Origin: Escherichia coli
GTDB lineage: Bacteria; Pseudomonadota; Gammaproteobacteria; Enterobacterales; Enterobacteriaceae
Direction: 5' to 3' (one strand)
Assembly: GCF_046105845.1 (NCBI RefSeq)
Contig: NZ_CP151004.1
Length of the DNA stretch: 64,000 nucleotides
Positions 5,790-62,144 of the stretch are shown here, one piece after another (positions within the stretch are counted from its first letter, which is position 1; each line of letters opens with the position of its first letter). Position numbers and translations under genes: made by a program. The notes beneath the pieces were generated by a model that was not told where the DNA came from, searched no databases, and saw only the letters and a list, made by a program, of their open reading frames with translations.

Positions 5790-6065
5790 CTATCGCACAG
5801 GATGAATAAGATAATTCGCCTTTGTCGAAAAAGGGGGCGTAATGTCTTCTGTGAGATTTAATGGTGGCGCATCTTCTCTCATCTTAAACAAAATCGCCTG
5901 TGATGGCTGAAGTTTTGTAGAGTGTGTGGTCGTCATCGCTGACGTTTTTTCCGTCTCTTTATAGCTCGCCTCACTACCACCACCAGAAATAGAAAATGCA
6001 AAAACATTGCATGCCATAATAGAGACCAATAAAAATAAGCTAAAAAGCATTAAGTTTACTTTCAT
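5790..6065 (-). CDS. ypdI: predicted lipoprotein
   Basis: 91-aa ORF with signal peptide and lipobox (SIMAC); K-12 synteny. Confidence 0.75.
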   Translation of the reverse strand: MKVNLMLFSLFLLVSIMACNVFAFSISGGGSEASYKETEKTSAMTTTHSTKLQPSQAILFKMREDAPPLNLTEDITPPFSTKANYLIHPVR

Positions 6066-6207: not shown

Positions 6208-6225
6208 TTCCTACAATTGTAAGAC
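6208..6225. promoter_or_regulatory. EvgA box upstream of yfdX
   Basis: TTCCTACAATTGTAAGAC matches the 18-bp EvgA inverted-repeat consensus TTCPyTACA-N2-TGTAPuGAA. Confidence 0.65.
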
Positions 6226-6360
6226 TAAAATACTTCTTGCGATAATAACTACAACTGTAAGATAACCCTTTCAAAATGACCGTTGCTCTCTGATTTCTCA
6301 TTTCATACTCACCCAATATGATGGCGGCGTTTTCTAAAACTGTTAAAGAATGAGGTAAGT

Positions 6361-6993
6361 ATGAAACGTTTAATTATGGCTACGATGGTCACAGCAATTC
6401 TGGCATCTTCAACTGTATGGGCGGCTGATAATGCACCGGTAGCGGCACAACAGCAAACTCAGCAAGTTCAGCAAACCCAGAAAACGGCAGCAGCAGAGCG
6501 TATCTCTGAACAAGGTTTATATGCGATGCGTGACGTGCAGGTAGCGCGCCTGGCTCTGTTTCATGGCGATCCGGAAAAGGCAAAAGAACTGACCAATGAA
6601 GCTTCAGCTTTGTTGTCAGATGACAGTACCGAATGGGCAAAGTTCGCTAAGCCAGGTAAAAAAACCAATGTCAATGATGACCAATATATTGTCATTAATG
6701 CATCTATCGGAATTTCTGAGAGTTATGTAGCGACACCCGAAAAAGAAGCCGCGATAAAAATTGCCAACGAAAAAATGGCGAAAGGGGATAAAAAGGGCGC
6801 AATGGAAGAGCTTCGCCTGGCCGGTGTTGGCGTAATGGAAAACCAATATCTGATGCCGCTCAAACAGACTCGTAATGCACTTGCTGATGCGCAGAAACTG
6901 CTTGATAAAAAGCAATACTACGAGGCAAACCTGGCGCTTAAAGGTGCGGAAGATGGAATCATCGTCGATAGCGAAGCACTGTTTGTGAACTAA
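6361..6993 (+). CDS. yfdX: EvgA-regulated periplasmic protein (YfdX family)
   Basis: 210-aa ORF with signal peptide ([21 protein letters not shown]); K-12 synteny. Confidence 0.85.
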
Positions 6994-7236
6994 TGCTGAC
7001 AGGCAGTATATTGAGGTAAAGGATTTAACTCCCTCCAGCCGACAATTTTTTATGACCACAATACGACAGATTGTGGTCATAAAATTATTTGGCGCTCGCG
7101 GTTCTATAAACTCGCATTTTATCTTCCTCAAAGTAAACCGCAATAATCCCGTGTCATCACAAATCATTTATTATGTTATGTTTTATGGTACGCTTTAAAA
7201 AGCGTAATCATACCCTTACTTGTAAATCACCGGCGC

Positions 7237-7254
7237 TTCTTACAGTTGTAAGAA
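7237..7254. promoter_or_regulatory. EvgA box upstream of frc
   Basis: TTCTTACAGTTGTAAGAA is a perfect match to the EvgA inverted-repeat consensus. Confidence 0.7.
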
Positions 7255-7505
7255 TAACATCACAAATGTCGCGGCTCTCTCTGATTACCGCGAACCAATA
7301 TTTATCATATTCTTCTTTTCGTCCTCACTACTTACCATGCAGAAAGGAATTGGAAGTGGCGATGAAATGATTTTCAGCACTTGATACAGGAATTTAAAAA
7401 TATCGAGTGCAGCTACGACGATATTTTGCGGATTATTTATAGAGGGCGTTATGCCTTAAATAAACGCTAAATTAACATATATTTAATTAACTAATAGGTA
7501 TTGCT

Positions 7506-8756
7506 ATGTCAACTCCACTTCAAGGAATTAAAGTTCTCGATTTCACCGGTGTGCAATCTGGCCCATCTTGTACTCAAATGCTGGCCTGGTTTGGCGCTGA
7601 CGTCATTAAAATTGAACGTCCCGGCGTTGGTGACGTAACGCGTCACCAGCTGCGAGATATTCCTGATATCGATGCGCTTTACTTCACCATGCTTAACAGT
7701 AACAAACGTTCTATTGAATTAAATACCAAAACAGCGGAAGGCAAAGAGGTAATGGAAAAGCTGATCCGCGAAGCTGATATCTTAGTCGAGAACTTTCATC
7801 CTGGGGCCATTGATCACATGGGCTTCACCTGGGAGCATATTCAAGAAATCAATCCACGTCTGATTTTTGGTTCGATCAAAGGGTTTGATGAGTGTTCGCC
7901 TTATGTGAATGTAAAAGCCTATGAAAACGTTGCTCAGGCAGCGGGTGGCGCGGCATCCACTACGGGTTTTTGGGACGGTCCGCCGCTGGTAAGCGCTGCA
8001 GCGTTGGGTGACAGCAACACCGGAATGCATTTACTGATCGGTTTACTTGCTGCTTTGCTGCATCGCGAAAAAACGGGGCGTGGGCAACGAGTCACCATGT
8101 CAATGCAGGATGCCGTATTGAACCTTTGCCGCGTGAAATTACGCGACCAGCAGCGTCTCGATAAATTGGGTTATCTGGAAGAATACCCGCAGTATCCGAA
8201 TGGCACATTTGGTGATGCAGTTCCCCGCGGAGGTAATGCGGGTGGTGGCGGTCAGCCTGGCTGGATCCTGAAATGTAAAGGCTGGGAAACCGATCCTAAC
8301 GCCTATATTTATTTCACTATTCAGGAGCAAAACTGGGAAAACACCTGTAAAGCCATCGGCAAACCAGATTGGATTACCGATCCGGCATACAGTACAGCCC
8401 ATGCCCGACAGCCACATATTTTCGATATTTTTGCTGAAATCGAAAAATACACTGTCACTATTGATAAACATGAAGCGGTGGCCTATTTGACTCAGTTTGA
8501 TATTCCTTGTGCACCGGTTTTAAGTATGAAAGAAATTTCACTTGATCCCTCTTTGCGCCAAAGTGGCAGTGTTGTTGAAGTGGAACAACCGTTGCGTGGA
8601 AAATATCTGACAGTTGGTTGTCCAATGAAATTCTCTGCCTTTACGCCGGATATTAAAGCTGCGCCGCTATTAGGTGAACATACCGCTGCTGTATTGCAGG
8701 AGCTGGGTTATAGCGACGATGAAATTGCTGCAATGAAGCAAAACCACGCCATCTGA
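7506..8756 (+). CDS. frc: formyl-CoA:oxalate CoA-transferase
   Basis: 416-aa ORF, family III CoA-transferase ([40 protein letters not shown]); synteny with oxc. Confidence 0.9.
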
Positions 8757-8809
8757 TATTAACGGGGGCTTCTGGCTCCCAATTTATAAAAATTTCGAGG
8801 TTATTAATC

Positions 8810-10504
8810 ATGTCAGATCAACTTCAAATGACAGATGGTATGCATATCATCGTTGAAGCATTAAAACAGAATGATATTGACACTATTTATGGTGTTGTAG
8901 GTATTCCTGTGACGGATATGGCACGCCATGCCCAGGCGGAAGGCATTCGTTATATTGGTTTTCGTCATGAGCAGTCGGCAGGCTATGCCGCTGCGGCAAG
9001 CGGTTTTCTTACCCAAAAACCGGGGATCTGCCTGACAGTTTCTGCGCCAGGATTCCTCAATGGTTTGACCGCATTGGCCAATGCAACGGTAAATGGTTTT
9101 CCGATGATCATGATTAGCGGCTCCAGCGACCGCGCGATCGTCGACCTACAGCAAGGTGATTATGAAGAGCTGGACCAAATGAATGCGGCAAAACCGTATG
9201 CCAAAGCAGCATTCCGCGTTAATCAGCCGCAGGATCTTGGCATTGCATTGGCACGCGCTATCCGGGTCTCAGTATCGGGTCGCCCTGGCGGAGTTTATCT
9301 TGATTTACCAGCAAATGTCCTGGCCGCGACGATGGAAAAAGACGAAGCGTTAACCACGATTGTAAAAGTTGAAAATCCGTCGCCAGCATTATTGCCATGC
9401 CCGAAGTCAGTCACTAGCGCAATTTCGCTTTTAGCAAAAGCTGAACGTCCATTAGTTATCCTTGGCAAAGGCGCGGCGTATTCACAAGCGGATGAACAGC
9501 TTCGTGAATTTATTGAAAGTGCCCAGATTCCATTCCTGCCAATGTCTATGGCGAAAGGGATCCTCGAAGATACACATCCACTTTCTGCGGCAACTGCGCG
9601 TTCGTTTGCCCTGGCAAATGCTGACGTTGTCATGCTTGTTGGTGCACGACTGAATTGGTTACTGGCACACGGTAAAAAAGGATGGGCGGCAGATACACAG
9701 TTTATTCAACTGGATATTGAACCGCAGGAAATTGACAGCAACCGCCCCATTGCTGTGCCAGTCGTTGGCGATATTGCATCCAGTATGCAAGATATGCTGG
9801 CAGAACTGAAAAAAAACACATTTACGACTCCACTGGTATGGCGCGATATTTTAAATATCCACAAGCAGCAAAATGCACAAAAAATGCATGAAAAATTAAG
9901 TACAGATACTCAACCATTAAATTACTTTAATGCATTAAGTGCTGTGCGCGATGTATTGCGCGAGAACCAGGATATTTATTTAGTTAATGAAGGTGCAAAT
10001 ACCCTGGATAATGCACGAAATATTATTGATATGTATAAACCACGTCGCCGTCTGGATTGTGGTACCTGGGGTGTCATGGGCATCGGTATGGGCTATGCCA
10101 TCGGTGCTAGCGTGACCTCTGGTTCTCCGGTTGTCGCCATTGAAGGTGATAGTGCTTTTGGTTTCAGTGGGATGGAGATTGAAACGATTTGTCGATATAA
10201 CCTGCCGGTGACGGTCGTTATTTTTAATAATGGCGGCATCTACAGAGGAGACGGTGTTGATCTCAGTGGCGCTGGTGCACCATCACCAACAGATCTATTG
10301 CACCATGCAAGGTATGACAAATTAATGGATGCGTTTCGTGGCGTTGGCTATAACGTCACTACGACAGATGAACTTCGTCATGCTTTAACCACCGGTATTC
10401 AGTCGCGCAAACCGACCATTATTAATGTGGTCATCGACCCTGCAGCAGGAACTGAAAGTGGCCATATTACCAAACTTAACCCAAAACAAGTCGCTGGTAA
10501 TTAA
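8810..10504 (+). CDS. oxc: oxalyl-CoA decarboxylase (ThDP-dependent)
   Basis: 564-aa ORF with ThDP-binding motif ([31 protein letters not shown]). Confidence 0.9.
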
Positions 10505-10572
10505 ATACTGACATCGTCTCCTCTTGCCAACTCATTATCGATGGTGAGGGGACCCTTATCGGAAATACTATT

Positions 10573-11517
10573 ATGCTAACATTTTTTATTGGCGATTTAT
10601 TGCCTATTATCGTAATCATGCTGTTGGGTTATTTTAGCGGCAGACGAGAAACTTTTTCAGAAGATCAAGCCCGGGCATTTAATAAACTGGTATTAAACTA
10701 CGCTCTTCCTGCGGCCCTATTTGTTTCTATTACCCGGGCAAATAGGGAAATGATTTTTGCGGACACTCGCCTGACCCTTGTATCACTTGTGGTTATTGTC
10801 GGATGTTTCTTTTTCTCCTGGTTTGGTTGCTACAAATTTTTTAAACGTACTCATGCAGAAGCAGCAGTATGTGCATTAATTGCAGGTTCACCTACCATCG
10901 GATTCCTGGGATTTGCAGTTCTCGATCCTATTTATGGTGATTCCGTATCAACAGGTTTAGTTGTAGCAATTATTTCTATTATTGTTAACGCAATTACTAT
11001 TCCTATTGGTCTGTATTTGCTGAATCCTTCCTCAGGAGCAGATGGTAAGAAGAATAGTAATCTGAGCGCATTAATTTCTGCGGCAAAGGAGCCAGTAGTA
11101 TGGGCACCTGTTCTGGCAACGATCCTGGTGTTGGTTGGGGTAAAAATTCCGGCAGCATGGGACCCAACCTTTAATCTGATTGCGAAGGCTAACTCAGGGG
11201 TAGCGGTATTCGCTGCGGGGTTGACTCTGGCTGCACATAAATTCGAGTTCAGTGCTGAAATTGCTTATAACACCTTCCTGAAGCTGATTCTGATGCCACT
11301 GGTGCTGCTTCTCGTGGGTATGGCATGTCATTTGAACAGCGAACATTTGCAGATGATGGTACTGGCAGGCGCCTTACCGCCGGCATTCTCCGGAATCATT
11401 ATTGCCAGCCGGTTTAATGTCTACACCCGCACTGGTACAGCATCATTGGCTGTGAGCGTACTGGGCTTTGTCGTCACGGCTCCTTTGTGGATTTATGTCA
11501 GTCGACTGGTTTCATAA
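10573..11517 (+). CDS. yfdV: AEC-family membrane transporter
   Basis: 314-aa polytopic membrane ORF; K-12 synteny. Confidence 0.85.
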
Positions 11518-11590
11518 TTAATCATGTTATTGATTTTACATAAATGCCGAAGTGTCTTTTCACCTTCGGCTTTTTTCAAGGCATAAGCAA

Positions 11591-12736
11591 ATGACAAATA
11601 ATGAATGCAAAGGGCCGTTTGAAGGCTTATTAGTTATCGATATGACACATGTCCTTAATGGACCTTTCGGAACTCAACTTCTTTGTAATATGGGCGCAAG
11701 GGTAATTAAAGTTGAGCCGCCGGGCCATGGTGATGATACCCGCACATTTGGTCCCTATGTGGATGGACAGTCACTCTATTACAGTTTTATTAATCATGGC
11801 AAAGAGAGTGTGGTTCTTGATTTAAAGAATGATCACGATAAAAGTATATTTATAAATATGCTTAAACAAGCTGATGTATTAGCTGAGAATTTTCGCCCTG
11901 GTACAATGGAAAAACTGGGGTTTTCATGGGAAACGCTACAAGAAATCAACCCGCGTCTCATATATGCTTCATCGTCAGGTTTTGGGCATACCGGCCCGCT
12001 AAAAGATGCTCCTGCCTACGATACCATCATTCAGGCAATGAGCGGGATAATGATGGAAACGGGATACCCTGATGCTCCGCCAGTTCGCGTGGGTACCTCT
12101 CTTGCGGATTTATGTGGCGGTGTCTATTTATTCAGTGGAATAGTGAGTGCACTTTATGGCCGCGAAAAGAGCCAACGAGGGGCGCATGTCGATATAGCGA
12201 TGTTTGATGCCACTCTGAGTTTTCTGGAGCACGGACTGATGGCATATATCGCGACTGGGAAGTCACCACAACGTCTGGGAAATCGTCACCCCTACATGGC
12301 ACCTTTTGATGTTTTCGATACTCAGGATAAGCCGATTACGATTTGTTGTGGTAATGACAAGCTTTTTTCTGCGTTATGTCAGGCACTGGATCTGACGGAG
12401 CTGGTTGATGATCCCCGATTTATCAGCAATATTTTACGCGTACAAAACCAGGCTATTCTTAAACAATATATTGAGCGGACGTTAAAAACACAGGCAGCTG
12501 AAGTTTGGTTAGCCAGAATACATGAAGTTGGTGTACCCGTAGCGCCGTTATTAAGTGTGGCTGAGGCCATTAATTTGCCACAAACTCAGGCGAGAAATAT
12601 GTTGATTGAAGCCGGGGGAATAATGATGCCGGGTAATCCGATAAAAATCAGCGGCTGCGCGGACCCGCATGTTATGCCGGGAGCGGCAACGCTCGACCAG
12701 CATGGGGAACAAATTCGCCAGGAATTCTCATCGTAA
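11591..12736 (+). CDS. yfdE: acetyl-CoA:oxalate CoA-transferase (family III CoA-transferase)
   Basis: ORF track 11552..12736; start placed at the internal ATG (MTNNECKGPFEGLLVIDMTHVLNGPFG...); paralogous to Frc. Confidence 0.85.
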   Translation: MTNNECKGPFEGLLVIDMTHVLNGPFGTQLLCNMGARVIKVEPPGHGDDTRTFGPYVDGQSLYYSFINHGKESVVLDLKNDHDKSIFINMLKQADVLAENFRPGTMEKLGFSWETLQEINPRLIYASSSGFGHTGPLKDAPAYDTIIQAMSGIMMETGYPDAPPVRVGTSLADLCGGVYLFSGIVSALYGREKSQRGAHVDIAMFDATLSFLEHGLMAYIATGKSPQRLGNRHPYMAPFDVFDTQDKPITICCGNDKLFSALCQALDLTELVDDPRFISNILRVQNQAILKQYIERTLKTQAAEVWLARIHEVGVPVAPLLSVAEAINLPQTQARNMLIEAGGIMMPGNPIKISGCADPHVMPGAATLDQHGEQIRQEFSS

Positions 12737-12790: not shown

Positions 12791-15700
12791 TTAGTCATTT
12801 TGTTGACAGAAAACAGCAATCTCCTGGTCTAACTCTGCAATGTGTTCTTTAACAGAGTTCAGCAACTTAAGAATTTCAGGCTTGCTGTCATCTGAAACGG
12901 GCGTTATTTCTAACTGATGGCTAAGATTAATCAACTTTTGCAAATTCAGGATGTTAGCCGCACCGTGGATGCGATGAATACACTGATGGAAAATTCTGTT
13001 GTCGCCAGCTTCTAGTGCATGAAACGCAGCGGGTAGATCTTTATGCGTTTCATGCTGGAAAGTCATGAGAATCTCCTGCATCAGTTGTAGATCGTTCGCC
13101 GTATTATTTTTCAGGGCCTCGATATCAAGGTGGCGATACTGAGGTGCAATATGCGCAACCTGGTGTAACTGACTTAAATGTGTTTTCAGTACATCCAGGG
13201 TCAACGGTTTGAACAAACATAAGTTCATGCCGCAATTTAACCCTTTTTCACGTTCGTTAGCCTGTGCGTTGGCTGTAAGCCCCCAGATAGGTAAGGAAGA
13301 ATTTTGCTCACGGAGTTTGCGAGTCAACTCAAAACCATCCATATTCGGCATATTAACGTCAGTAATAAGCAGATCATAATGTTGCATACTGACTTTGTGT
13401 AGCGCTTGCACACCATCAGTGGCTTCATCAACATCATATCCTAATAGGTTTAGCTGGCGTTTGAGTAATAGCCTGTTGGTCGGATGATCATCCGCGATTA
13501 ATATACTCAACTTTTCAGGGAGTGTCATAGGTTGTTCTGCTTTTGCCTCGACAGTCGCCACTTGTTGGGTAATTTCTACCGGGATTGTGATCGTAAATGT
13601 CGTTCCTATGCCTGGATGACTTTCTAATGACAAATCGCCCTGCATGTTTTTAATTAATTCTTTGCAGATCATTAAGCCTAAACCAGAACCTGTTTGCTGA
13701 CGACCTGCACTTGTTTGGCTATAGCGTTTAAACAGTTGTTGTTGTTCTTCCTGCGATAATCCACTTCCAGAATCCATAATCGTCATTTTGATAACAGCGT
13801 GGTTGTCATCAATGTCACCCAGGGAGGTCGTAATTTTTACTGCCCCCTCGGTGGTAAATTTGAGAGCATTGCTCAGTAAATTAGATAAGACCTGCTTAAA
13901 CGCCTGAGGGTCGATCTTAACCTGGTAATGTTCAGGAAACGTACTGCTGCAACTTAATGCGATGGATTTGCTTGCAGCAATCGCACCGAAAGAGTGACAA
14001 GTGTTCTGGACTAAAGTAGGGATATCGACCCATTGTGGTTGAAGTTGATAGTTACCCGACTCAATTTTGTCGACATCAAGGATTTCACCAATTAAGCCGA
14101 GGAGTGATTGTCCGGTGGCGTAGGCAAGTGAAATCGCCTCCACCCGTTGCTCCTTGCTAAGACCAGAACCCGACAAAAGTTCCAGGAAGCCCATAATGGA
14201 GCTTATTGGTGTTCTTATTTCGTGACTCATTGTTGCCAGAAACTGGCTTTTTGCGACAGTTGCATTGATCGCTTTATTTCTCTCTACTTCGAGTGCATGA
14301 ATTAAATCACGCGTCTCGGTAATATCTTGCCAACCACAAATATAAACAGCATGATCGCTGGCTGGCAGATTGCATAATGTATGCCAGTGATTAATGCATC
14401 TTTTCTCGATGCCATTATCAATTTCAAATACCTGTGTGTATATTGTTCGATTTTCTTTCGTTTCTGCTGTGACTTCATGCGCATTAGAAAAAACATCTTT
14501 AAAGGGTGAGTCACTGTTTTCTAATGGTAACATTGCATTTTTGTAGTAATCCGCAGTGAAATAATGTTCAAAAGCACTATTATGACTAATGACATTACCT
14601 TGCCAGTTTACAACATAAGTTGGATTCGGTAAGGAATCCGAGAGTGCTTTTCGGAATGATATTTGGTTTTCTAAATCACCCTGAATGACTTTACGACGAC
14701 GAACTGAGCGTAACAGGTAGAATCCCCATAAAAGGCTACTGCCAACTAATAAAACGGATAATGTCGTGACAATATAAAATTGCTCGCTATAGAGGTCCCA
14801 TGTGTCAATGGTCACATTGGGCATTTTAATCCATTTTTCCGTCAGGCGCAGAACTTCGCTTGGGGGAATTGCATTCAGTGCTTTATTAATAATATCCTTA
14901 AGTTCCGGTTCTCCGCGAGGAAAAGCGAACGAAAGCGATGCATTCTGAACGCCGGGAATAAGAAAATGATAAAGTTCATTAGGATAGTAATGGTCGATCA
15001 TGTAACGCGAATTTAGCTGTGTCGCGACCAGAGCATCAAGTTCACCTTCTTTAACCTTGTGAAATGCAGCGCTGGCATTATCGACTTTTATCCACTCTAC
15101 CTCCGGATACATCTCTTTTAATTGCGAATGAAGCTCATAATAATATGGAATGGCAACTTTCATTCCTTTTTTTAATGTTTGTTCACTGTCAGGCGCTTTT
15201 TGCATGACAAAAACGTAAGGCGTTGTTATGAAGGCTTCAGCAAATGAAACATTATTTTCTCGATCTTCACTATAAATAGCGGCGGGCAATATATCCCATC
15301 CACCGGGATTAAGCTGTGTCCCCGCATGAATATTGTGTGAAACGGTGATCGGAGAAAAATTTAAACCTGTTTGCAAGGTAATAATATTAAGAATATCACC
15401 CATCACGCCCCGAACTGAGCCAGTTTCATCTGTCATAGAATAGGGTGGCGAGTAAGGATTTTCCAGCACCTTTAAATCGGGATGCTGCTTAATCCACTGT
15501 TTTTCATGTTCAGTGAGTTCTAATGGTTTGTTCAGAAAGGCCAGGTTTCCTGTATCAAGCCAATTTTGTGATACTTCATAGCGAACTTCATTTGTTAAAG
15601 CATCAACAAATCGATTGAGTACTTCATTAAGAACGACTGAATCTTTTCTGGTTAAGAAAAAGTTATATTGACGCGGCGAGTTATAATATTTCACTACATT

Positions 15701-16384
15701 TAAGGAGTGAGTGAAATAGCGGGAAATCATACTGCTGGTAATAATGTTACTACCAATAAAGTAATCATTCTGTCCGGCTGAGACGGATGCTAATGCCTGA
15801 TATAAATTTGTAAAAGAGATAATTGTTGCTTTTGGAAATGATTGATGAATTACCTCATCTGGAGGGTAATTTGCTACCCGAGCAATATTTACTGGTTTTG
15901 ATGAGGTAAGCGGTCTCATTGAATCGTGAAGGGTGGTGACCAGCGCCGGAAAGGTAATTATCAGCGGTTTGGTTGCAGCAATGTCATCATTAAGAGGCGG
16001 CGAAGCAACTAAATGTGATAACACTATATCGACTTCCCCTTCTGTAAGCGCGTCCATTGCTTTTTGATGATCTGCGTATTCCCGGAGTGTTAATTTGATA
16101 TTTAACGCTCTTTTTAAAAGATTTAAATAATCAGCATTAATACCACGAACCCGTTGCTGCGAATCGGTATGCAACAAAGTAGCCGTTTGGGACTTGTGTA
16201 CTGCAATCACAAGATTTTTTTTGCTCGCTAACCAACGTAATTCCTTGTTGCTCAGACGTAGTGGATCAAGCGTGACACGGTTGTTACTACTGATGCCACG
16301 ATATTCGATGTAATCTTCGTCTGCGAAAATTATGGTCGACCAAAGACCACAACAGAGAAGAATAATATAGGGTAAAAACTTCAT
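12791..16384 (-). CDS. evgS: hybrid sensor histidine kinase (periplasmic sensor, HisKA, HATPase, receiver, HPt)
   Basis: 1197-aa ORF with H-box (ATMSHEIRTP), receiver and HPt domains. Confidence 0.92.
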   Translation of the reverse strand: MKFLPYIILLCCGLWSTIIFADEDYIEYRGISSNNRVTLDPLRLSNKELRWLASKKNLVIAVHKSQTATLLHTDSQQRVRGINADYLNLLKRALNIKLTLREYADHQKAMDALTEGEVDIVLSHLVASPPLNDDIAATKPLIITFPALVTTLHDSMRPLTSSKPVNIARVANYPPDEVIHQSFPKATIISFTNLYQALASVSAGQNDYFIGSNIITSSMISRYFTHSLNVVKYYNSPRQYNFFLTRKDSVVLNEVLNRFVDALTNEVRYEVSQNWLDTGNLAFLNKPLELTEHEKQWIKQHPDLKVLENPYSPPYSMTDETGSVRGVMGDILNIITLQTGLNFSPITVSHNIHAGTQLNPGGWDILPAAIYSEDRENNVSFAEAFITTPYVFVMQKAPDSEQTLKKGMKVAIPYYYELHSQLKEMYPEVEWIKVDNASAAFHKVKEGELDALVATQLNSRYMIDHYYPNELYHFLIPGVQNASLSFAFPRGEPELKDIINKALNAIPPSEVLRLTEKWIKMPNVTIDTWDLYSEQFYIVTTLSVLLVGSSLLWGFYLLRSVRRRKVIQGDLENQISFRKALSDSLPNPTYVVNWQGNVISHNSAFEHYFTADYYKNAMLPLENSDSPFKDVFSNAHEVTAETKENRTIYTQVFEIDNGIEKRCINHWHTLCNLPASDHAVYICGWQDITETRDLIHALEVERNKAINATVAKSQFLATMSHEIRTPISSIMGFLELLSGSGLSKEQRVEAISLAYATGQSLLGLIGEILDVDKIESGNYQLQPQWVDIPTLVQNTCHSFGAIAASKSIALSCSSTFPEHYQVKIDPQAFKQVLSNLLSNALKFTTEGAVKITTSLGDIDDNHAVIKMTIMDSGSGLSQEEQQQLFKRYSQTSAGRQQTGSGLGLMICKELIKNMQGDLSLESHPGIGTTFTITIPVEITQQVATVEAKAEQPMTLPEKLSILIADDHPTNRLLLKRQLNLLGYDVDEATDGVQALHKVSMQHYDLLITDVNMPNMDGFELTRKLREQNSSLPIWGLTANAQANEREKGLNCGMNLCLFKPLTLDVLKTHLSQLHQVAHIAPQYRHLDIEALKNNTANDLQLMQEILMTFQHETHKDLPAAFHALEAGDNRIFHQCIHRIHGAANILNLQKLINLSHQLEITPVSDDSKPEILKLLNSVKEHIAELDQEIAVFCQQND

Positions 16385-16388
16385 GTGG

Positions 16389-17003
16389 TTAGCCGATTTT
16401 GTTACGTTGTGCGAATGTGTAAAGATCCATCAGTGATTTACATTCTAATTTTTCCATCAGGCGACTTTTATAAGTGCTGACAGTTTTGTTGCTGATGAAC
16501 ATTTTTTCCGCAATATCATTATTATCCTTGCCATCAAGAATATATCGCATGACACTAATTTCTTGTTTCGATAAGGAGTCGAGTTTTTGCTGGTCGGACG
16601 TTAAACTTCCAACAAACCGGTTGAGAGAGAAGGGGAAATAGCAGTAGCCATTTTTTGCAGCTTCAATAGCCGCAATGATATTGTTCATGCCTTCTTTTTT
16701 ACTCACGAATCCATTAGCGCCAGCATCAGCACAATGTTTCCCGTAAAAATGGTCATTTTTAGCGGAGACGATAATAATAATTCCGCTATATTGGCGCTTC
16801 CTCAGCGTTTCTAACACCTGGATACCGTTAACTCCGGGGATATCGACATCAATGATGACGATATCAGGTTTAAGTGTTTCCACCCGCTGAACGGCACTTC
16901 CCCCTTCAGTCAACTCCGCTAAGATTTCAATATCGTTTTTGATCAATAAATTACGAATTGCTGCGATAGCAAGAGGATGGTCATCAATAATTATTGCGTT
17001 CAT
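16389..17003 (-). CDS. evgA: NarL/FixJ-family response regulator
   Basis: 204-aa ORF with receiver and LuxR-type HTH; immediately upstream of evgS. Confidence 0.92.
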   Translation of the reverse strand: MNAIIIDDHPLAIAAIRNLLIKNDIEILAELTEGGSAVQRVETLKPDIVIIDVDIPGVNGIQVLETLRKRQYSGIIIIVSAKNDHFYGKHCADAGANGFVSKKEGMNNIIAAIEAAKNGYCYFPFSLNRFVGSLTSDQQKLDSLSKQEISVMRYILDGKDNNDIAEKMFISNKTVSTYKSRLMEKLECKSLMDLYTFAQRNKIG

Positions 17004-17227
17004 AGATTATTCCCTTTGCAATGAAGCATCTCCCTTCTCCCTGTAGTAATACAGACATAAGGCATCATCTCATTTTCTCAATAAAAATAAGAAAATTTGA
17101 GCTTCCTTTAAGATAATTCGACAAGTATACCATATAAATAGTCGGCATATATGAAATGTCAACAATAAAATCAGGGATTGTACCGATTATTTATAGTTTC
17201 ACATTAGTACTATAAGTCTTCTCACTA

Positions 17228-17245
17228 ATCCTACATGCGTAAGAA
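17228..17245. promoter_or_regulatory. EvgA box-like site in the evgA-emrK divergent region
   Basis: ATCCTACATGCGTAAGAA, one mismatch per half-site to the EvgA consensus. Confidence 0.5.
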
Positions 17246-17418
17246 TTGTATTGCAAAAGCCACGGTTTAGTCCTCTGTTGTTTTTTTTGCACCTCATTTA
17301 AATTAGGCCTCCAACGTTCCTGGGATAATGTGCAACACATGCACTGTGTTTGATATGAAGAATGAATAATCATTTCATTCAATTCATAAATTTCATCTAT
17401 GCGAAATGAGAGATAATA

Positions 17419-18582
17419 GTGGAACAGATTAATTCAAATAAAAAACAATCTAACAGAAGAAAATACTTTTCTTTATTGGCGGTAGTTTTATTTATTGCGT
17501 TTTCAGGTGCCTATGCCTATTGGTCAATGGAATTAGAAGACATGATTAGTACAGATGACGCCTATGTCACGGGGAATGCAGATCCAATTTCTGCACAAGT
17601 CTCAGGTAGTGTCACTGTCGTTAATCATAAAGATACGAACTACGTTCGACAAGGTGACATTTTAGTCTCACTGGATAAGACTGATGCCACTATCGCACTC
17701 AATAAAGCTAAAAATAATCTGGCCAATATTGTTCGGCAAACGAATAAACTGTACTTACAGGATAAACAATACAGTGCCGAAGTCGCTTCAGCTCGTATTC
17801 AGTATCAACAATCTTTAGAAGATTATAACCGTCGTGTACCTTTAGCGAAGCAGGGGGTTATTTCAAAAGAAACGCTGGAGCATACCAAAGATACGTTAAT
17901 AAGTAGCAAAGCGGCATTGAATGCTGCTATTCAGGCTTATAAAGCGAATAAAGCTTTAGTAATGAACACACCATTAAACCGTCAGCCACAAGTCGTTGAA
18001 GCGGCGGATGCAACCAAAGAAGCCTGGTTAGCGCTTAAACGTACGGATATTAAGAGTCCGGTTACCGGCTATATTGCCCAGCGAAGTGTTCAGGTCGGCG
18101 AAACAGTGAGTCCCGGACAATCGTTAATGGCTGTCGTACCGGCACGTCAAATGTGGGTTAATGCCAACTTTAAAGAAACACAACTCACGGATGTACGGAT
18201 TGGTCAATCGGTCAATATTATCAGCGATCTTTATGGTGAAAATGTTGTGTTTCATGGTCGGGTGACAGGGATCAATATGGGAACCGGCAATGCGTTCTCC
18301 TTATTACCTGCACAAAATGCGACAGGGAACTGGATCAAAATCGTTCAGCGTGTACCGGTTGAAGTTTCTCTTGATCCAAAAGAACTCATGGAACATCCCT
18401 TACGTATTGGTTTATCGATGACAGCAACTATTGATACGAAGAACGAAGACATTGCCGAGATGCCTGAGCTGGCTTCAACCGTGACGTCCATGCCTGCTTA
18501 TACCAGTAAGGCTTTAGTTATCGATACCAGCCCGATAGAAAAAGAAATTAGCAACATTATTTCGCATAATGGACAACTTTAA
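17419..18582 (+). CDS. emrK: multidrug efflux membrane fusion protein (EmrA/HlyD family)
   Basis: 387-aa ORF with N-terminal TM anchor and periplasmic coiled-coil; paired with an MFS pump gene. Confidence 0.9.
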   Translation: MEQINSNKKQSNRRKYFSLLAVVLFIAFSGAYAYWSMELEDMISTDDAYVTGNADPISAQVSGSVTVVNHKDTNYVRQGDILVSLDKTDATIALNKAKNNLANIVRQTNKLYLQDKQYSAEVASARIQYQQSLEDYNRRVPLAKQGVISKETLEHTKDTLISSKAALNAAIQAYKANKALVMNTPLNRQPQVVEAADATKEAWLALKRTDIKSPVTGYIAQRSVQVGETVSPGQSLMAVVPARQMWVNANFKETQLTDVRIGQSVNIISDLYGENVVFHGRVTGINMGTGNAFSLLPAQNATGNWIKIVQRVPVEVSLDPKELMEHPLRIGLSMTATIDTKNEDIAEMPELASTVTSMPAYTSKALVIDTSPIEKEISNIISHNGQL

Positions 18583-20120
18583 TGGCAATCACTAAATCAA
18601 CTCCGGCACCATTAACCGGTGGGACGTTATGGTGCGTCACTATTGCATTGTCATTAGCGACGTTTATGCAAATGTTGGATTCCACTATTTCTAACGTCGC
18701 AATACCGACAATATCTGGCTTTCTGGGAGCATCAACAGACGAAGGCACCTGGGTTATCACTTCGTTTGGCGTAGCAAATGCCATTGCGATCCCTGTTACC
18801 GGCAGGCTGGCACAAAGAATAGGCGAATTAAGATTATTTTTACTTTCAGTCACTTTTTTTTCGCTGTCTTCATTAATGTGTAGCCTATCGACCAATCTTG
18901 ATGTGCTGATATTTTTTAGAGTCGTTCAGGGGTTAATGGCGGGGCCGTTAATTCCACTGTCACAGAGTTTATTATTAAGGAATTATCCGCCAGAAAAAAG
19001 AACATTTGCTTTGGCATTATGGTCAATGACCGTAATTATCGCTCCGATATGTGGGCCGATATTGGGCGGCTATATTTGCGATAACTTTAGCTGGGGTTGG
19101 ATATTTTTAATCAATGTCCCTATGGGGATTATCGTTCTGACATTATGCTTAACCTTACTTAAAGGAAGAGAAACTGAGACTTCACCGGTCAAAATGAATC
19201 TACCAGGACTAACCCTGTTAGTGCTCGGTGTTGGTGGCTTGCAGATAATGCTTGATAAAGGGCGCGACCTGGATTGGTTCAACTCGAGTACAATAATAAT
19301 ACTAACAGTAGTGTCAGTTATTTCTCTGATTTCTTTAGTCATTTGGGAGTCGACCTCAGAGAACCCGATTCTTGATCTCAGTTTGTTTAAGTCCCGTAAT
19401 TTCACCATTGGTATTGTGAGTATCACATGCGCGTATTTATTTTACTCTGGAGCGATCGTCCTTATGCCGCAGTTACTCCAGGAAACTTTGGGGTATAATG
19501 CGATATGGGCCGGACTTGCTTATGCGCCCATCGGCATCATGCCACTATTAATTTCACCTTTGATAGGACGTTATGGCAACAAAATAGACATGCGGGTGTT
19601 AGTGACATTTAGTTTTTTGATGTATGCGGTTTGCTATTACTGGCGTTCTGTGACATTTATGCCAACGATTGATTTTACAGGCATTATTTTGCCACAGTTT
19701 TTCCAGGGATTCGCCGTTGCCTGTTTCTTTTTACCCTTAACAACGATTTCGTTTTCAGGGTTGCCAGATAATAAATTTGCCAATGCCTCGAGTATGAGTA
19801 ATTTTTTTCGTACCTTGTCAGGATCAGTTGGTACGTCGTTGACAATGACGCTGTGGGGACGACGCGAATCGTTACACCATAGTCAGTTGACAGCAACCAT
19901 CGATCAATTTAACCCCGTGTTTAATTCATCGTCACAAATTATGGATAAATACTATGGTTCGCTTTCAGGAGTTCTTAATGAGATTAATAATGAAATAACC
20001 CAGCAGTCACTTTCTATTTCTGCAAATGAGATTTTCCGTATGGCGGCTATTGCTTTTATCTTACTTACGGTTTTGGTTTGGTTTGCGAAACCGCCCTTTA
20101 CAGCGAAAGGCGTTGGGTGA
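18582..20120 (+). CDS. emrY: MFS multidrug efflux pump (EmrB family, 14 TM)
   Basis: 512-aa polytopic ORF; start overlaps the emrK stop. Confidence 0.9.
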   Translation: MAITKSTPAPLTGGTLWCVTIALSLATFMQMLDSTISNVAIPTISGFLGASTDEGTWVITSFGVANAIAIPVTGRLAQRIGELRLFLLSVTFFSLSSLMCSLSTNLDVLIFFRVVQGLMAGPLIPLSQSLLLRNYPPEKRTFALALWSMTVIIAPICGPILGGYICDNFSWGWIFLINVPMGIIVLTLCLTLLKGRETETSPVKMNLPGLTLLVLGVGGLQIMLDKGRDLDWFNSSTIIILTVVSVISLISLVIWESTSENPILDLSLFKSRNFTIGIVSITCAYLFYSGAIVLMPQLLQETLGYNAIWAGLAYAPIGIMPLLISPLIGRYGNKIDMRVLVTFSFLMYAVCYYWRSVTFMPTIDFTGIILPQFFQGFAVACFFLPLTTISFSGLPDNKFANASSMSNFFRTLSGSVGTSLTMTLWGRRESLHHSQLTATIDQFNPVFNSSSQIMDKYYGSLSGVLNEINNEITQQSLSISANEIFRMAAIAFILLTVLVWFAKPPFTAKGVG

Positions 20121-40613: not shown

Positions 40614-41073
40614 TCAACGTAAGGCGTTCCTCGATATGCTGGCGTGGTCAGAGGGAACAGATAACGGACGACAGAAAACCAGAAATCATGGTTATGACGT
40701 CATTGTTGGCGGAGAGCTATTCACTGATTACTCCGATCACCCTCGCAAACTTGTCACGCTAAATCCAAAACTCAAATCAACAGCAGCCGGGCGCTATCAG
40801 CTTCTTTCCCGTTGGTGGGATGCCTACCGTAAGCAGCTTGGCCTGAAAGACTTCTCTCCCAAAAGCCAGGACGCTGTTGCGCTGCAGCAGATTAAGGAAC
40901 GTGGCGCTTTGCCGATGATTGATCGCGGTGATATTCGTCAGGCTATCGACCGTTGCAGCAATATCTGGGCTTCACTGCCGGGCGCTGGCTATGGCCAGTT
41001 CGAGCATAAGGCTGACAGCCTGATTGCAAAATTCAAAGAAGTTGGCGGAACGGTCAGAGAGATTGAGGTATGA
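40597..41073 (+). CDS. R: endolysin (lambda R lytic transglycosylase)
   Basis: 158-aa [27 protein letters not shown]... Confidence 0.9.
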
Positions 41074-41537
41074 GCAGAGTAACCGCGATTATCTCAGCTC
41101 TGGTTATCTGCATCATCGTTTGCCTGTCATGGGCTGTTAATCATTACCGTGATAACGCCATCGCCTACAAAGAACAGCGTGATAAAAAAGTCAGTGAGCT
41201 GAAGCAGGCGACCGCCACCATTACTGACATGCAGCAACGCCAGCGTGCTGCTGATGCACTCGATGCTAAATACACGAAGGAGTTAGCTGATGCGAAAGCT
41301 GAAAATGATGCTCTTCGGCGCAAGCTTGATAATGGTGGCAGGGTGCTCGTCAAAGGAAAATGCCCTGTGCCATCCTCAGCCGAAACCTCCGGCGCCTCCG
41401 GCATGGGCAATGATGCCACCGTCGAACTCTCTCCAGTTGCTGGACGAAACGTTCTCGGTGTCCGGGACGGAATTATCCGCGACCAAACAGCACTGAGAAC
41501 GCTTCAGGAATACATCAGGACGCAATGCCTTCGATGA
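41070..41537 (+). CDS. Rz: i-spanin
   Basis: 155-aa ORF with N-terminal TM helix and coiled-coil periplasmic domain. Confidence 0.85.
41290..41496 (+). CDS. Rz1: o-spanin lipoprotein embedded in Rz (+1 frame)
   Basis: Embedded [24 protein letters not shown]... with lipobox and a Pro-rich segment. Confidence 0.75.
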
Positions 41538-41711
41538 TAGCGATAATTTTACTCATCATCCTTCACATCTGGCTCTGTAGACAGGGTGGTGAACACTTCT
41601 GGAGTGAATCCAGATTAAACATCTCATTGCTGATGCTTGATATTGAGCATCTGGCGCGCGGTAAGGGGCTGCGTTGAGATAAGAGCCAGTCATTACAAAT
41701 ACCAGGATTTA

Positions 41712-41736
41712 GCCTCGCATTTGCGGGGCTTTTTTA
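41712..41736 (+). terminator. terminator-like hairpin downstream of the lysis cassette
   Basis: GCCTCGC-ATTT-GCGGGGC followed by TTTTTT. Confidence 0.5.
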
Positions 41737-41880
41737 CATCTGCAGTAAACCGCGCATCGCAGCGCGTAACAATCCCGAGTCTTTCAGAAAGCTGAGCCTG
41801 AGAACTGCCGTATATGGTGGCGACCATCTCGGGGCGGCTTTTCTGTGCGAACAGGCTCATCTTTCTAAAAGGTAAACGCT

Positions 41881-58757: not shown

Positions 58758-58825
58758 AGTTGAAGCCCCAACTGCGGGAACAGTCAGGGCTTCGGTATCA
58801 ACAAATCGGATTAGGAAATATTGAC

Positions 58826-59804: not shown

Positions 59805-62144
59805 ATGACAGATTCAATAAATGCCAATGTTGTGGTAAGCATGCCTTCGCAACTCTTCACTATGGCTCGTTCTTTTAAAGCCGTAGCCAATGGCAAAATT
59901 TATATCGGTAAAATTGACACGGACCCGGTAAATCCTGAAAACCAGATTCAGGTTTATGTGGAGAACGAAGACGGTTCTCACGTTCCTGTTTCGCAACCAA
60001 TAATCATTAACGCTGCTGGATATCCGGTATATAACGGACAGATTGCCAAATTCGTTACCGTGCAAGGCCATTCTATGGCTGTTTATGATGCGTATGGTTC
60101 GCAGCAGTTCTATTTTCCGAATGTGTTGAAGTACGACCCTGATCAGTTTTCCTTGTGGGCAAAGGGAAATTTCGAAATATCAGAATACAGTCGAATAATT
60201 GATGGCGATTTTGCGTCTGGATATACTATTACCAATAGAAAACAGGTCCTTAAATACACTGATGGACTTTATTACCAATGGCTTGGTTCCCTTCCGAAAA
60301 CTGTAGCGCCAACAGAAAATCCAAATCTTAATAGTCAATGGTTATGCGTCATGGATGGTTCTAATTTCAATGATGCGATCATGTGCAGTCGCTACATTCA
60401 TAGCGGAGTTGACTGCGCATCGGTAATAAATAAATTACAAATATTATCAGAATATAAAAGGGTTCCTCTAGATTTTAGAGGTATAGATGTGATCTCGTTT
60501 AGTGGTAGTGTGCAAATTGGCGACTGGTTTCATTGGATTGGTGCAGGGAAGTCAAGTACTACTATCAGACCAATCTCACTAACAAAGCAAGACGTTGAGA
60601 ATAATGGCTTTGGCTATTACTCTTGGTTCATCCGTAAGAACCCTGACAAGGATCTATATTTTGCGATGCTGCAGGATATTTGTTTTGATGGACAATACCA
60701 AGACGGTTACGAAATAAATAACATTGCGCCGCAGAAGATTATTCGCGCATTCTGCTGGCATTTCAATAACGGTGCCATTGGTCGCAATATTACTGCTTTA
60801 AGATGTCATTTCAAAAACTGCCCACATGAAGCATGGGAAGGATACACAACTAATGGTGGAATGATTGATGGTATTAATTATTTGTATTGTTCATCAGAGG
60901 GAACAGACCCAATGCTTACCGCTGTTGGATTCAATGCATTTAAGTGTATGAATGGCTCTATTGATTCACCTGGCGAATACGGTACATATACCATTAAAAA
61001 CATCTTCAGTTTCGGCAACACTGCTTTCGGCCATCGTACATTGAATGACTTTAAGAGAGGTTGCGAAAATTGGGTTATCGATGCATGCCAAACATTCGAC
61101 ATGAACGATTGCCATCACTCTACGGATGGTTCACGCCGTGGTGTATTCCTTGCTGGCAATATCGGAATTCAAACAGGAAAATCAAAAGCAACTAAAAATT
61201 TTCTTGAAATTCAAGGAGAGAATATTGATGTTCTTGGTGGAAAGTATGTTGCTGCAGCAACCAGTGTGGCTGGCTTGGCTGGTATATTCGTGACTAATTA
61301 CTCGTATCCTTCTGAGTCTACAGACTTCCAATCACAGCACATTCGAATTAAAAATGTCTATGTCGAAAGGGTAAACAATAATGCGGTACGCATTGTCAAT
61401 GGGTATGACATCAACGTTGAAGATATCACGGCTGTTAGCTGTAACGGTGTTGGTGTATCATTCGAATTTGTGCCTGGACTAATTAGCGGAATTGACAATC
61501 AAGAGATAAAACCAAGATTTAACTCTGTAGGTAAGATCATAACTAGTTCGTGTTCAGGTGAAGTGCTTGTAGACAATAACCAAGACGTATTTATCACTGC
61601 CAATAGCCAGAATACAGGAGGTGGTTTTCGTGTTGGAAGAAGTGATGCTGTCCATAGTACTAACCCTCTACCGATGCGTTCCATAGCTGGTCATATTCTA
61701 GCTAATCAGGATAGATTTTTTCAGTCTGTTATATCTATTGCGCCAGAGAAAACAGATGCAACTACAAAGCCTGTAGGTACGCCTTATGCATTCACTCTTA
61801 ACGATAAGAATACCGCATCAGTACAGAGTTTATTAGTGGCAACACTTCGAGTAGCTCAACGAAGCGCTGTCTATGTAAGACTATGGACGTTATCAGAAAC
61901 ATCAATATCATCGGCGGTCATTTTTCGCGAATTGGATTCTACAGGTAATTCGTTATCTAATACTGCAATAAAATTATTATCTGATAATTCGTGGCTTGAG
62001 CGTCAGGCAATATATCATGTTAAAAGATCAGAATGTGTAGCTGTAGAGGTTTTTCTTGCTCCTGCTTGTGATGAACGCATGGATATTTCCTTGACAGGAA
62101 CAACTAGTTTTGCTGATGTTAGAGTAAGTAATTATCCAATCTGA
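59805..62144 (+). CDS. tailspike protein (P22 gp9-type head-binding N-terminus plus divergent receptor-binding domain)
   Basis: 779-aa ORF; the first ~110 aa ([47 protein letters not shown]...[10 protein letters not shown]) match the recalled P22 tailspike N-terminus, the remainder does not. Confidence 0.85.

Follow-up and report, generated by a model that had tools for sequence, protein, structure and literature searches.

Three 18-bp inverted repeats in the 64,000-nucleotide stretch of Escherichia coli DNA analysed here (the window) are very probably operators of the phosphorylated response regulator EvgA, and a weaker fourth repeat at 6246-6263 probably serves the same role. On our side, this assignment is based on the existence of the repeats, on statistics beyond chance, on boxes found at independent genes, on constraint of the half-sites and on the presence of an intact regulator. 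The literature contributes EvgA binding in vitro and EvgA-dependent expression, partly through secondary citations.

Position, sequence and chance level of the EvgA boxes

The first-pass annotation had placed sites matching the EvgA repeat upstream of yfdX and frc, the latter as a perfect match, and a weaker one with one mismatch per half in the divergent evgA-emrK region. Direct reading and a pattern scan for TTCYTACANNTGTARGAA confirmed all of them. The box upstream of yfdX at 6208-6225 reads TTCCTACAATTGTAAGAC and has a single mismatch, a C at position 18, a count that was absent from the earlier annotation. The box upstream of frc at 7237-7254 (TTCTTACAGTTGTAAGAA) is free of mismatches, and the site at 17228-17245 (ATCCTACATGCGTAAGAA) carries indeed one mismatch in each half, an A at position 1 and a C at position 11. 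Measured against the inverted repeat TTCYTACA-NN-TGTARGAA, the frc, yfdX and evgA-emrK boxes deviate at 0, 1 and 2 positions, respectively, and a further site at 6246-6263 deviates at 3. According to open reading frames and RefSeq annotation, the three boxes are all intergenic and situated upstream of yfdX, frc and emrK/evgA, at 0.2 to 10 kb from evgA within the same cluster. Their centres precede the yfdX ATG by 144.5 nt, the frc ATG by 260.5 nt and the emrK GTG by 182.5 nt; the centre of the emrK box is also 233.5 nt away from the divergent evgA ATG.

The three reported repeats are far beyond chance. For the base composition of the window, the analytic expectation per 64 kb amounts to 9e-5 sites without mismatch, 0.004 with at most one, 0.08 with at most two and 1.0 with at most three mismatches. 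Two sites with at most one mismatch and three with at most two were observed, the latter corresponding to a Poisson P of ~1e-4. When up to three mismatches were allowed, five matches appeared in the window; dinucleotide shuffles yielded 0.74, and a count of five was not attained in any of the 100 shuffles. The three boxes and the weaker site are all found inside three intergenic regions that make up 1.9% of the window.

Other candidates were discarded. A match with 3 mismatches at 41731, in the prophage lysis region, and a matrix match at 60913 inside a 779-codon open reading frame are at chance level, and the half-palindrome CTTAC-TT-GTAAA at ~7215-7226, upstream of the frc box, has the wrong spacing. 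The three regulatory regions gave no match when compared with Rfam. Farther along the window, sar RNA was matched in Rfam (58758-58824, minus strand, 71.6 bits), and phage lysis genes at 40900-42500 encode a GIY-YIG nuclease, a lysis protein and a GH24 lysozyme; both indicate that the distal part contains a prophage of the P22/lambdoid type that is unrelated to the boxes.

Gene order and the cognate regulator

The window belongs to the E. coli chromosome. Among 5,426 complete E. coli genomes, 5,423 matched a 1.9-kb query around the boxes, the best of them at 99.7% identity. Gene identities and order were taken from the open reading frames together with the RefSeq annotation of K-12 MG1655 and other matching genomes. 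On the plus strand, yfdX (6361-6993), encoding a 210-aa protein of the YfdX family, lies downstream of the sites at 6208 and 6246, and ypdI (5790-6065) precedes it on the minus strand. The frc box is followed by the plus-strand operon frc-oxc-yfdV-yfdE (7506-12736) with genes of oxalate/formyl-CoA metabolism, namely frc (also yfdW, 7506-8756), oxc (8810-10504), yfdV (10573-11517) and yfdE (11552-12736). The minus-strand genes evgS (12791-16384) and evgA (16389-17003) come next, and the third box is located upstream of the plus-strand efflux operon emrK-emrY (17419-20120), which is composed of emrK with a GTG start (17419-18582) and emrY (18582-20120).

The genome encodes the complete cognate pair, the hybrid sensor kinase EvgS, which phosphorylates EvgA, and the response regulator EvgA proposed to bind the boxes; both genes are intact. 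EvgA of the window is identical to the K-12 protein. It consists of a receiver domain (Response_reg) and a LuxR-type helix-turn-helix (GerE) domain and matches the EvgA structures 5F64, 8ZWN and 3F6C, with NarL being the closest solved protein after EvgA itself (E = 5.5e-23). The 9-codon leader open reading frame evgL (17000-17029, minus strand, MLHCKGNNL), which is annotated in K-12 and has been described as translationally coupled to evgA (PMC11210196), is intact in the window as well.

While EvgA is identical, EvgS of the window differs from K-12 EvgS at 31 of 1,197 residues. EvgS variants of this divergence, as present in B2 strains and MP1, did not respond to mild acid (PMC5706723). Hence, the boxes of this strain may rarely be occupied under the condition that is inducing in K-12.

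Independent test of the motif

To avoid a circular motif definition, K-12 regions with well-known genes of the EvgA regulon were fetched and scanned. The 18-bp repeat was also found upstream of safA (TGCCTACAGCTGTAAGAA, centre 120 nt before the start codon), ydeP (AGCCTACACCTGTAAGAA, 252 nt) and yegR (TTCCTACTTATGTAGGAA, 115 nt); the K-12 scan upstream of gadE revealed no comparable site. The occurrence of the same repeat at safA, ydeP and yegR, which are independent EvgA-regulon genes, means that the motif is not circular. A half-site matrix was then built by us from these three boxes only. In the resulting scan of the window, the three claimed sites ranked 1 to 3 among ~64,000 positions, with scores of 24.8 bits (7237), 20.8 bits (6208) and 18.6 bits (17228), and the weaker site at 6246 followed with 13.1 bits to complete the best four. 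The mean best score in composition-preserving shuffles was 12.3. At yfdX and frc, K-12 has exactly the boxes of the window, and the K-12 emrK box differs in one spacer base only.

Sequence variation across genomes

Three spacer regions were aligned from 12 genomes, comprising the window, nine E. coli genomes spanning 96-99.8% identity, K-12 and L003. The latter, deposited as E. coli and serving as a species-representative genome, belongs to a divergent Escherichia lineage, being 84-87% identical to the window in the spacer regions, 92.9% in frc and 88.9% in evgS. Variable columns were rare in the half-sites (4/64, 6%), frequent in the spacer (5/8, 62%) and of intermediate frequency in other intergenic DNA (242/1150, 21%). 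The difference between half-sites and other intergenic columns (Fisher P = 0.002) is indicative only given the relatedness of the genomes, and the same applies to that between spacer and half-sites (P = 0.0004), as the genomes are related and the columns not independent. The two central bases occurred in several forms (AT/AC; AC/AG/GT/AT; GT/GC; TG/GG), and the boxes at 6208 and 7237 varied among the 12 genomes exclusively at spacer position 10. Judged from these columns, constraint acts on the half-sites and spares the 2-bp spacer, which is the pattern that a symmetric dimer site should show.

The evgA-emrK region deserves separate mention. The version of this site with two mismatches is shared by all E. 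coli sampled, and in L003 (19729-19746) the site is the perfect box TTCCTACAGGTGTAAGAA, in which both mismatches of the window are replaced by consensus bases. Outside the genus, 79 frc loci of other genera among the matches listed (1.49 Mb) contained no box with at most two mismatches, including those of Moellerella and Providencia with an Frc that is 86% identical. This frc-based comparison, with L003 as the one Escherichia locus among the matches listed, is useful as a negative control but does not amount to footprinting in E. albertii or E. fergusonii.

A weaker site and a variable 38-bp unit upstream of yfdX

The fourth site at 6246-6263 (TAACTACAACTGTAAGAT, 3 mismatches, matrix rank 4) had been missed in the earlier annotation. 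It is located 38 bp downstream of the yfdX box, and its centre is 106.5 nt before the yfdX ATG. Taken alone, its matrix score is no better than that of the best chance match in 64 kb, and it becomes significant only because it shares the same 295-bp spacer region with the yfdX box. Among the 12 genomes, its cores CTACA and TGTAAGA were invariant and its spacer appeared in four forms. The site at 6246-6263 is probably an EvgA operator as well.

The copy number of the 38-bp unit reaching from the yfdX box to the weak site is not the same in all E. coli. Two sites are present at the yfdX promoter of the window, of K-12 and of most E. coli, and among the 5,426 complete genomes at least 414 contain the duplication junction that signifies three sites. 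In strain 0H15 (L087), a 38-bp tandem duplication has created the third site TAACTACAATTGTAAGAC, a hybrid of the left flank of site 2 and the right part of box 1. Strain IBS28, the top match of a query of three concatenated 38-bp units (coverage counts of that query were left out), contains 3.4 units and thereby four sites (TRF: period 38, 3.4 copies, 98% matches). The array is found at 6208-6263 in the window, at 11643-11736 in L087 and at 401-528 in L094. In 0H15, insertions of IS903B (L087 12979-15295 and 19332-23991) disrupt frc and evgS, which amounts to a natural knockout of both the sensor and one target operon in a strain whose yfdX promoter has three sites.

We tentatively propose, as an idea with less than even chances, that the yfdX promoter might be an expandable array of EvgA sites which would act as a natural copy-number dial for the induction of yfdX in mild acid. 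A search of the open literature for a tandem repeat at yfdX returned only irrelevant papers. The weak site and the 38-bp variation are the only new details of this study; they were not found described in open papers, and the primary papers may hold them.

Transcription units and promoter geometry

Between yfdX and frc, a terminator-like hairpin is found on the plus strand at 7048-7084. It has a 15-pair stem followed by a T-rich tract (TTATTTGG; UUAUUUGG), a folding energy of -20.9 kcal/mol (z = -5.3), and the stem is kept in 12 of 12 genomes. This strong hairpin after yfdX argues that frc forms a separate unit with its own promoter and box. Scans with sigma-70 and terminator consensus sequences did not reveal any promoter with a consistent spacing to the boxes. 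Elements resembling -10/-35 sequences that were picked by eye, for example TGCGATAAT after the yfdX box and TATCAT after the frc box, differ between the promoters; hence, no transcription start is claimed. The evgA leader was reported to be 114 nt long (PMC11210196), which allows the evgA transcript start to be placed such that the centre of the emrK box is ~119.5 nt upstream of it. Promoter-like sequences in RNA-polymerase SELEX peaks (PMC3946193), which are sequence guesses and not mapped starts, would have the box lie near -148 in the case of emrK and downstream of the start in that of frc.

The 40 nt downstream of the boxes were compared ungapped and anchored on the boxes (7255-7294 for frc, 6264-6303 for yfdX site 2 and 17246-17285 for emrK). 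The frc box and yfdX site 2 share 20 of 40 downstream positions, which is the best register of ~1,180 tested, and all three regions agree in 10 of the 40 columns where 2.9 would be expected (P = 0.002). In the same register, the regions have CAAA (+9 to +12) and CG (+18/+19) in common, to which GCTCTCTGATT is added in frc and yfdX; these features are retained in L003 with its ~85% identity and could not be matched to any promoter element or regulator site already known. In K-12, the yegR box is found 20 nt before a perfect TATAAT. The shared register suggests a fixed geometry between box and promoter, and also suggests that the frc box would correspond in position to site 2 and not to box 1, the stronger of the two, with box 1 as a putative upstream auxiliary site.

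The long frc leader contains a highly conserved block on the plus strand (7337-7384) with a 15-codon open reading frame, MQKGIGSGDEMIFST, that has no obvious ribosome-binding site, and with two close GGA motifs, AAGGAATTGGAAG. These motifs could represent a candidate CsrA-type site. No gene is annotated for the block in K-12, and it has no Rfam match.

Mechanism and alternative explanations

Mild acidity would be sensed by EvgS and lead to phosphorylation of EvgA. The EvgA dimer, being of the NarL/FixJ type with a LuxR-type helix-turn-helix, would then insert one recognition helix into each 8-bp half-site (TTCYTACA and TGTARGAA), whereas the two central bases would not be read. Binding is expected to switch on the yfdX, frc-oxc-yfdV-yfdE and emrKY promoters, which are AT-rich and would otherwise be silent, and the divergent evgAS promoter may in addition receive feedback from the emrK site. 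As to the geometry of activation, i.e. a site contacting RNA polymerase, the pair of a strong distal and a weak proximal site at yfdX and the relief of H-NS silencing, this is only what we infer from the arrangement of the sites.

It is hardly conceivable that the matches are palindromes which arose by chance in AT-rich intergenic DNA and have no regulatory role. AT-rich spacers raise the background for an AT-rich motif, and the prophage match at 41731 with its three mismatches is evidently such a case; however, two and three sites were observed where 0.004 (at most one mismatch) and 0.08 (at most two) are expected, the observed count was reached in 0 of 100 shuffles, the half-sites are conserved while the spacer varies, and the emrK box is perfect in the diverged lineage L003. 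Shuffles, column counts and expectations effectively refute chance. It is also very unlikely that another regulator of the NarL/FixJ family such as RcsB mainly reads the repeats, so that EvgA dependence would be indirect. Half-sites are generally known to be alike within this family, and yfdX is reported to be under RcsB control in Klebsiella pneumoniae (PMC6394985). Nevertheless, the same 18-bp repeat precedes safA, ydeP and yegR as independent EvgA-regulon genes, the sites cluster around evgAS, and direct binding or activation by EvgA at yfdX, yfdWUVE and emrKY has been described (PMC3720670, PMC5706723, PMC9496106).

The more serious question is whether EvgA, once bound to the boxes, acts mainly by displacing or remodelling H-NS and not by direct recruitment of RNA polymerase from a fixed promoter-proximal position. 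The AT-rich cluster, with a GC content of 0.31-0.39 in the three intergenic regions and ~0.37-0.47 across the genes, was probably acquired, and H-NS is listed for the emrK/evgA and frc/yfdX spacer regions (PMC3946193). The long and unequal distances between boxes and start codons (107 to 260 nt) and the failure of the sigma-70 scans to find a canonical promoter at a fixed offset from the boxes are compatible with such a role. On the other hand, the same-register features in the sequences that follow the frc and emrK boxes and yfdX site 2 (10 columns versus 2.9, P = 0.002) and the 20-nt distance of the yegR box from a perfect TATAAT, which is typical of a directly acting activator, speak against it. 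We regard it as rather unlikely that this is the main mode of action, and anti-silencing is kept as a live alternative or additional mechanism next to direct activation by EvgA.

Relation to published work and known systems

In 2003, Masuda and Church reportedly found that seven operons under direct EvgA control have an 18-bp inverted repeat in a total of six upstream regions, and are said to have obtained gel shifts with EvgA for all six. This number fits ydeP, safA-ydeO, yegR, yfdX, yfdWUVE and the shared emrKY/evgAS region. Compared with the EvgA boxes of the K-12 regulon, the window has the same sites with the same motif, and there is no difference in substance for the three reported ones.

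Published work on the individual targets is in line with this view. The legend of Fig. 2 in PMC3720670, which cites Masuda & Church 2003, mentions inverted repeats before yfdX and yfdWUVE that are bound by EvgA, and the operon frc-oxc-yfdV-yfdE is reported to be EvgA-activated (PMC3720670, PMC4283999). Moreover, frc was the most induced gene in evgS-constitutive mutants, and an EvgA binding site was found in all directly regulated genes (PMC4283999). In tables on acid stress, yfdX, frc, oxc and yfdV are among the genes with the strongest induction (PMC10746267). Fusions of the yfdX and emrK promoters to yfp (PyfdX-yfp and PemrK-yfp) have been used as EvgA reporters and described as 'directly activated by phosphorylated EvgA' (PMC5706723). 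The emrKY promoter is reported to be bound by EvgA (PMC9496106, citing Kato 2000); expression of emrK-gfp was lost in an evgA deletion (PMC6393483), and EvgA dependence of emrKY has been reported repeatedly (PMC5706723, PMC6393483, PMC9496106). Finally, Frc, EmrK and EmrY have been listed among the EvgA-regulated proteins (bioRxiv 10.64898/2026.05.06.723403). Neither the consensus string nor the phrase 'EvgA box' was found in the open literature searched.

BvgA is the closest well-studied relative of EvgA and has its sites at Bordetella promoters such as fha. Both are known as regulators of the NarL/FixJ family that bind as dimers to an inverted heptad-type repeat. The combination of a strong upstream site with weaker promoter-proximal sites in Bordetella resembles the strong-plus-weak pair at yfdX; however, the half-site sequences differ, and BvgA dimers are spaced by ~22 bp as opposed to 38 bp here. 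The 7-2-7 sites of NarL and the RcsB boxes are generally known to share with EvgA sites the inverted half-sites 2 bp apart that accommodate a dimer with GerE/LuxR-type helix-turn-helix. In contrast, the NarL half-site TACYYMT differs from the EvgA half-site TTCYTACA, and so do regulon and signal, the latter being mild acid via EvgS in the case of EvgA.

Biological meaning

The proposal made from the bare sequence, that the boxes belong to the acid- and drug-resistance regulon surrounding evgAS, is supported by the gene order, the identity of EvgA, the independent matrix, the half-site constraint and the literature. The three sites are already-known EvgA operators, i.e. the observation is correct and ordinary. 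Its confirmation adds no new biology and has its value as a positive control for the sequence-only reading of genuine operators. Experiments might possibly be worthwhile on the weak yfdX site, on the 38-bp copy number and on the same-register downstream features, which could define the geometry of EvgA promoters. Regarding the physiology of E. coli, the sites place the efflux pump EmrKY and YfdX, a periplasmic protein, together with oxalate/formyl-CoA metabolism under one acid-sensing phosphorelay. If extra high-affinity copies change the occupancy by EvgA, the copy-number dial would set the strength of yfdX induction among E. coli lineages and would, if true, act alongside the known natural variation in EvgS.
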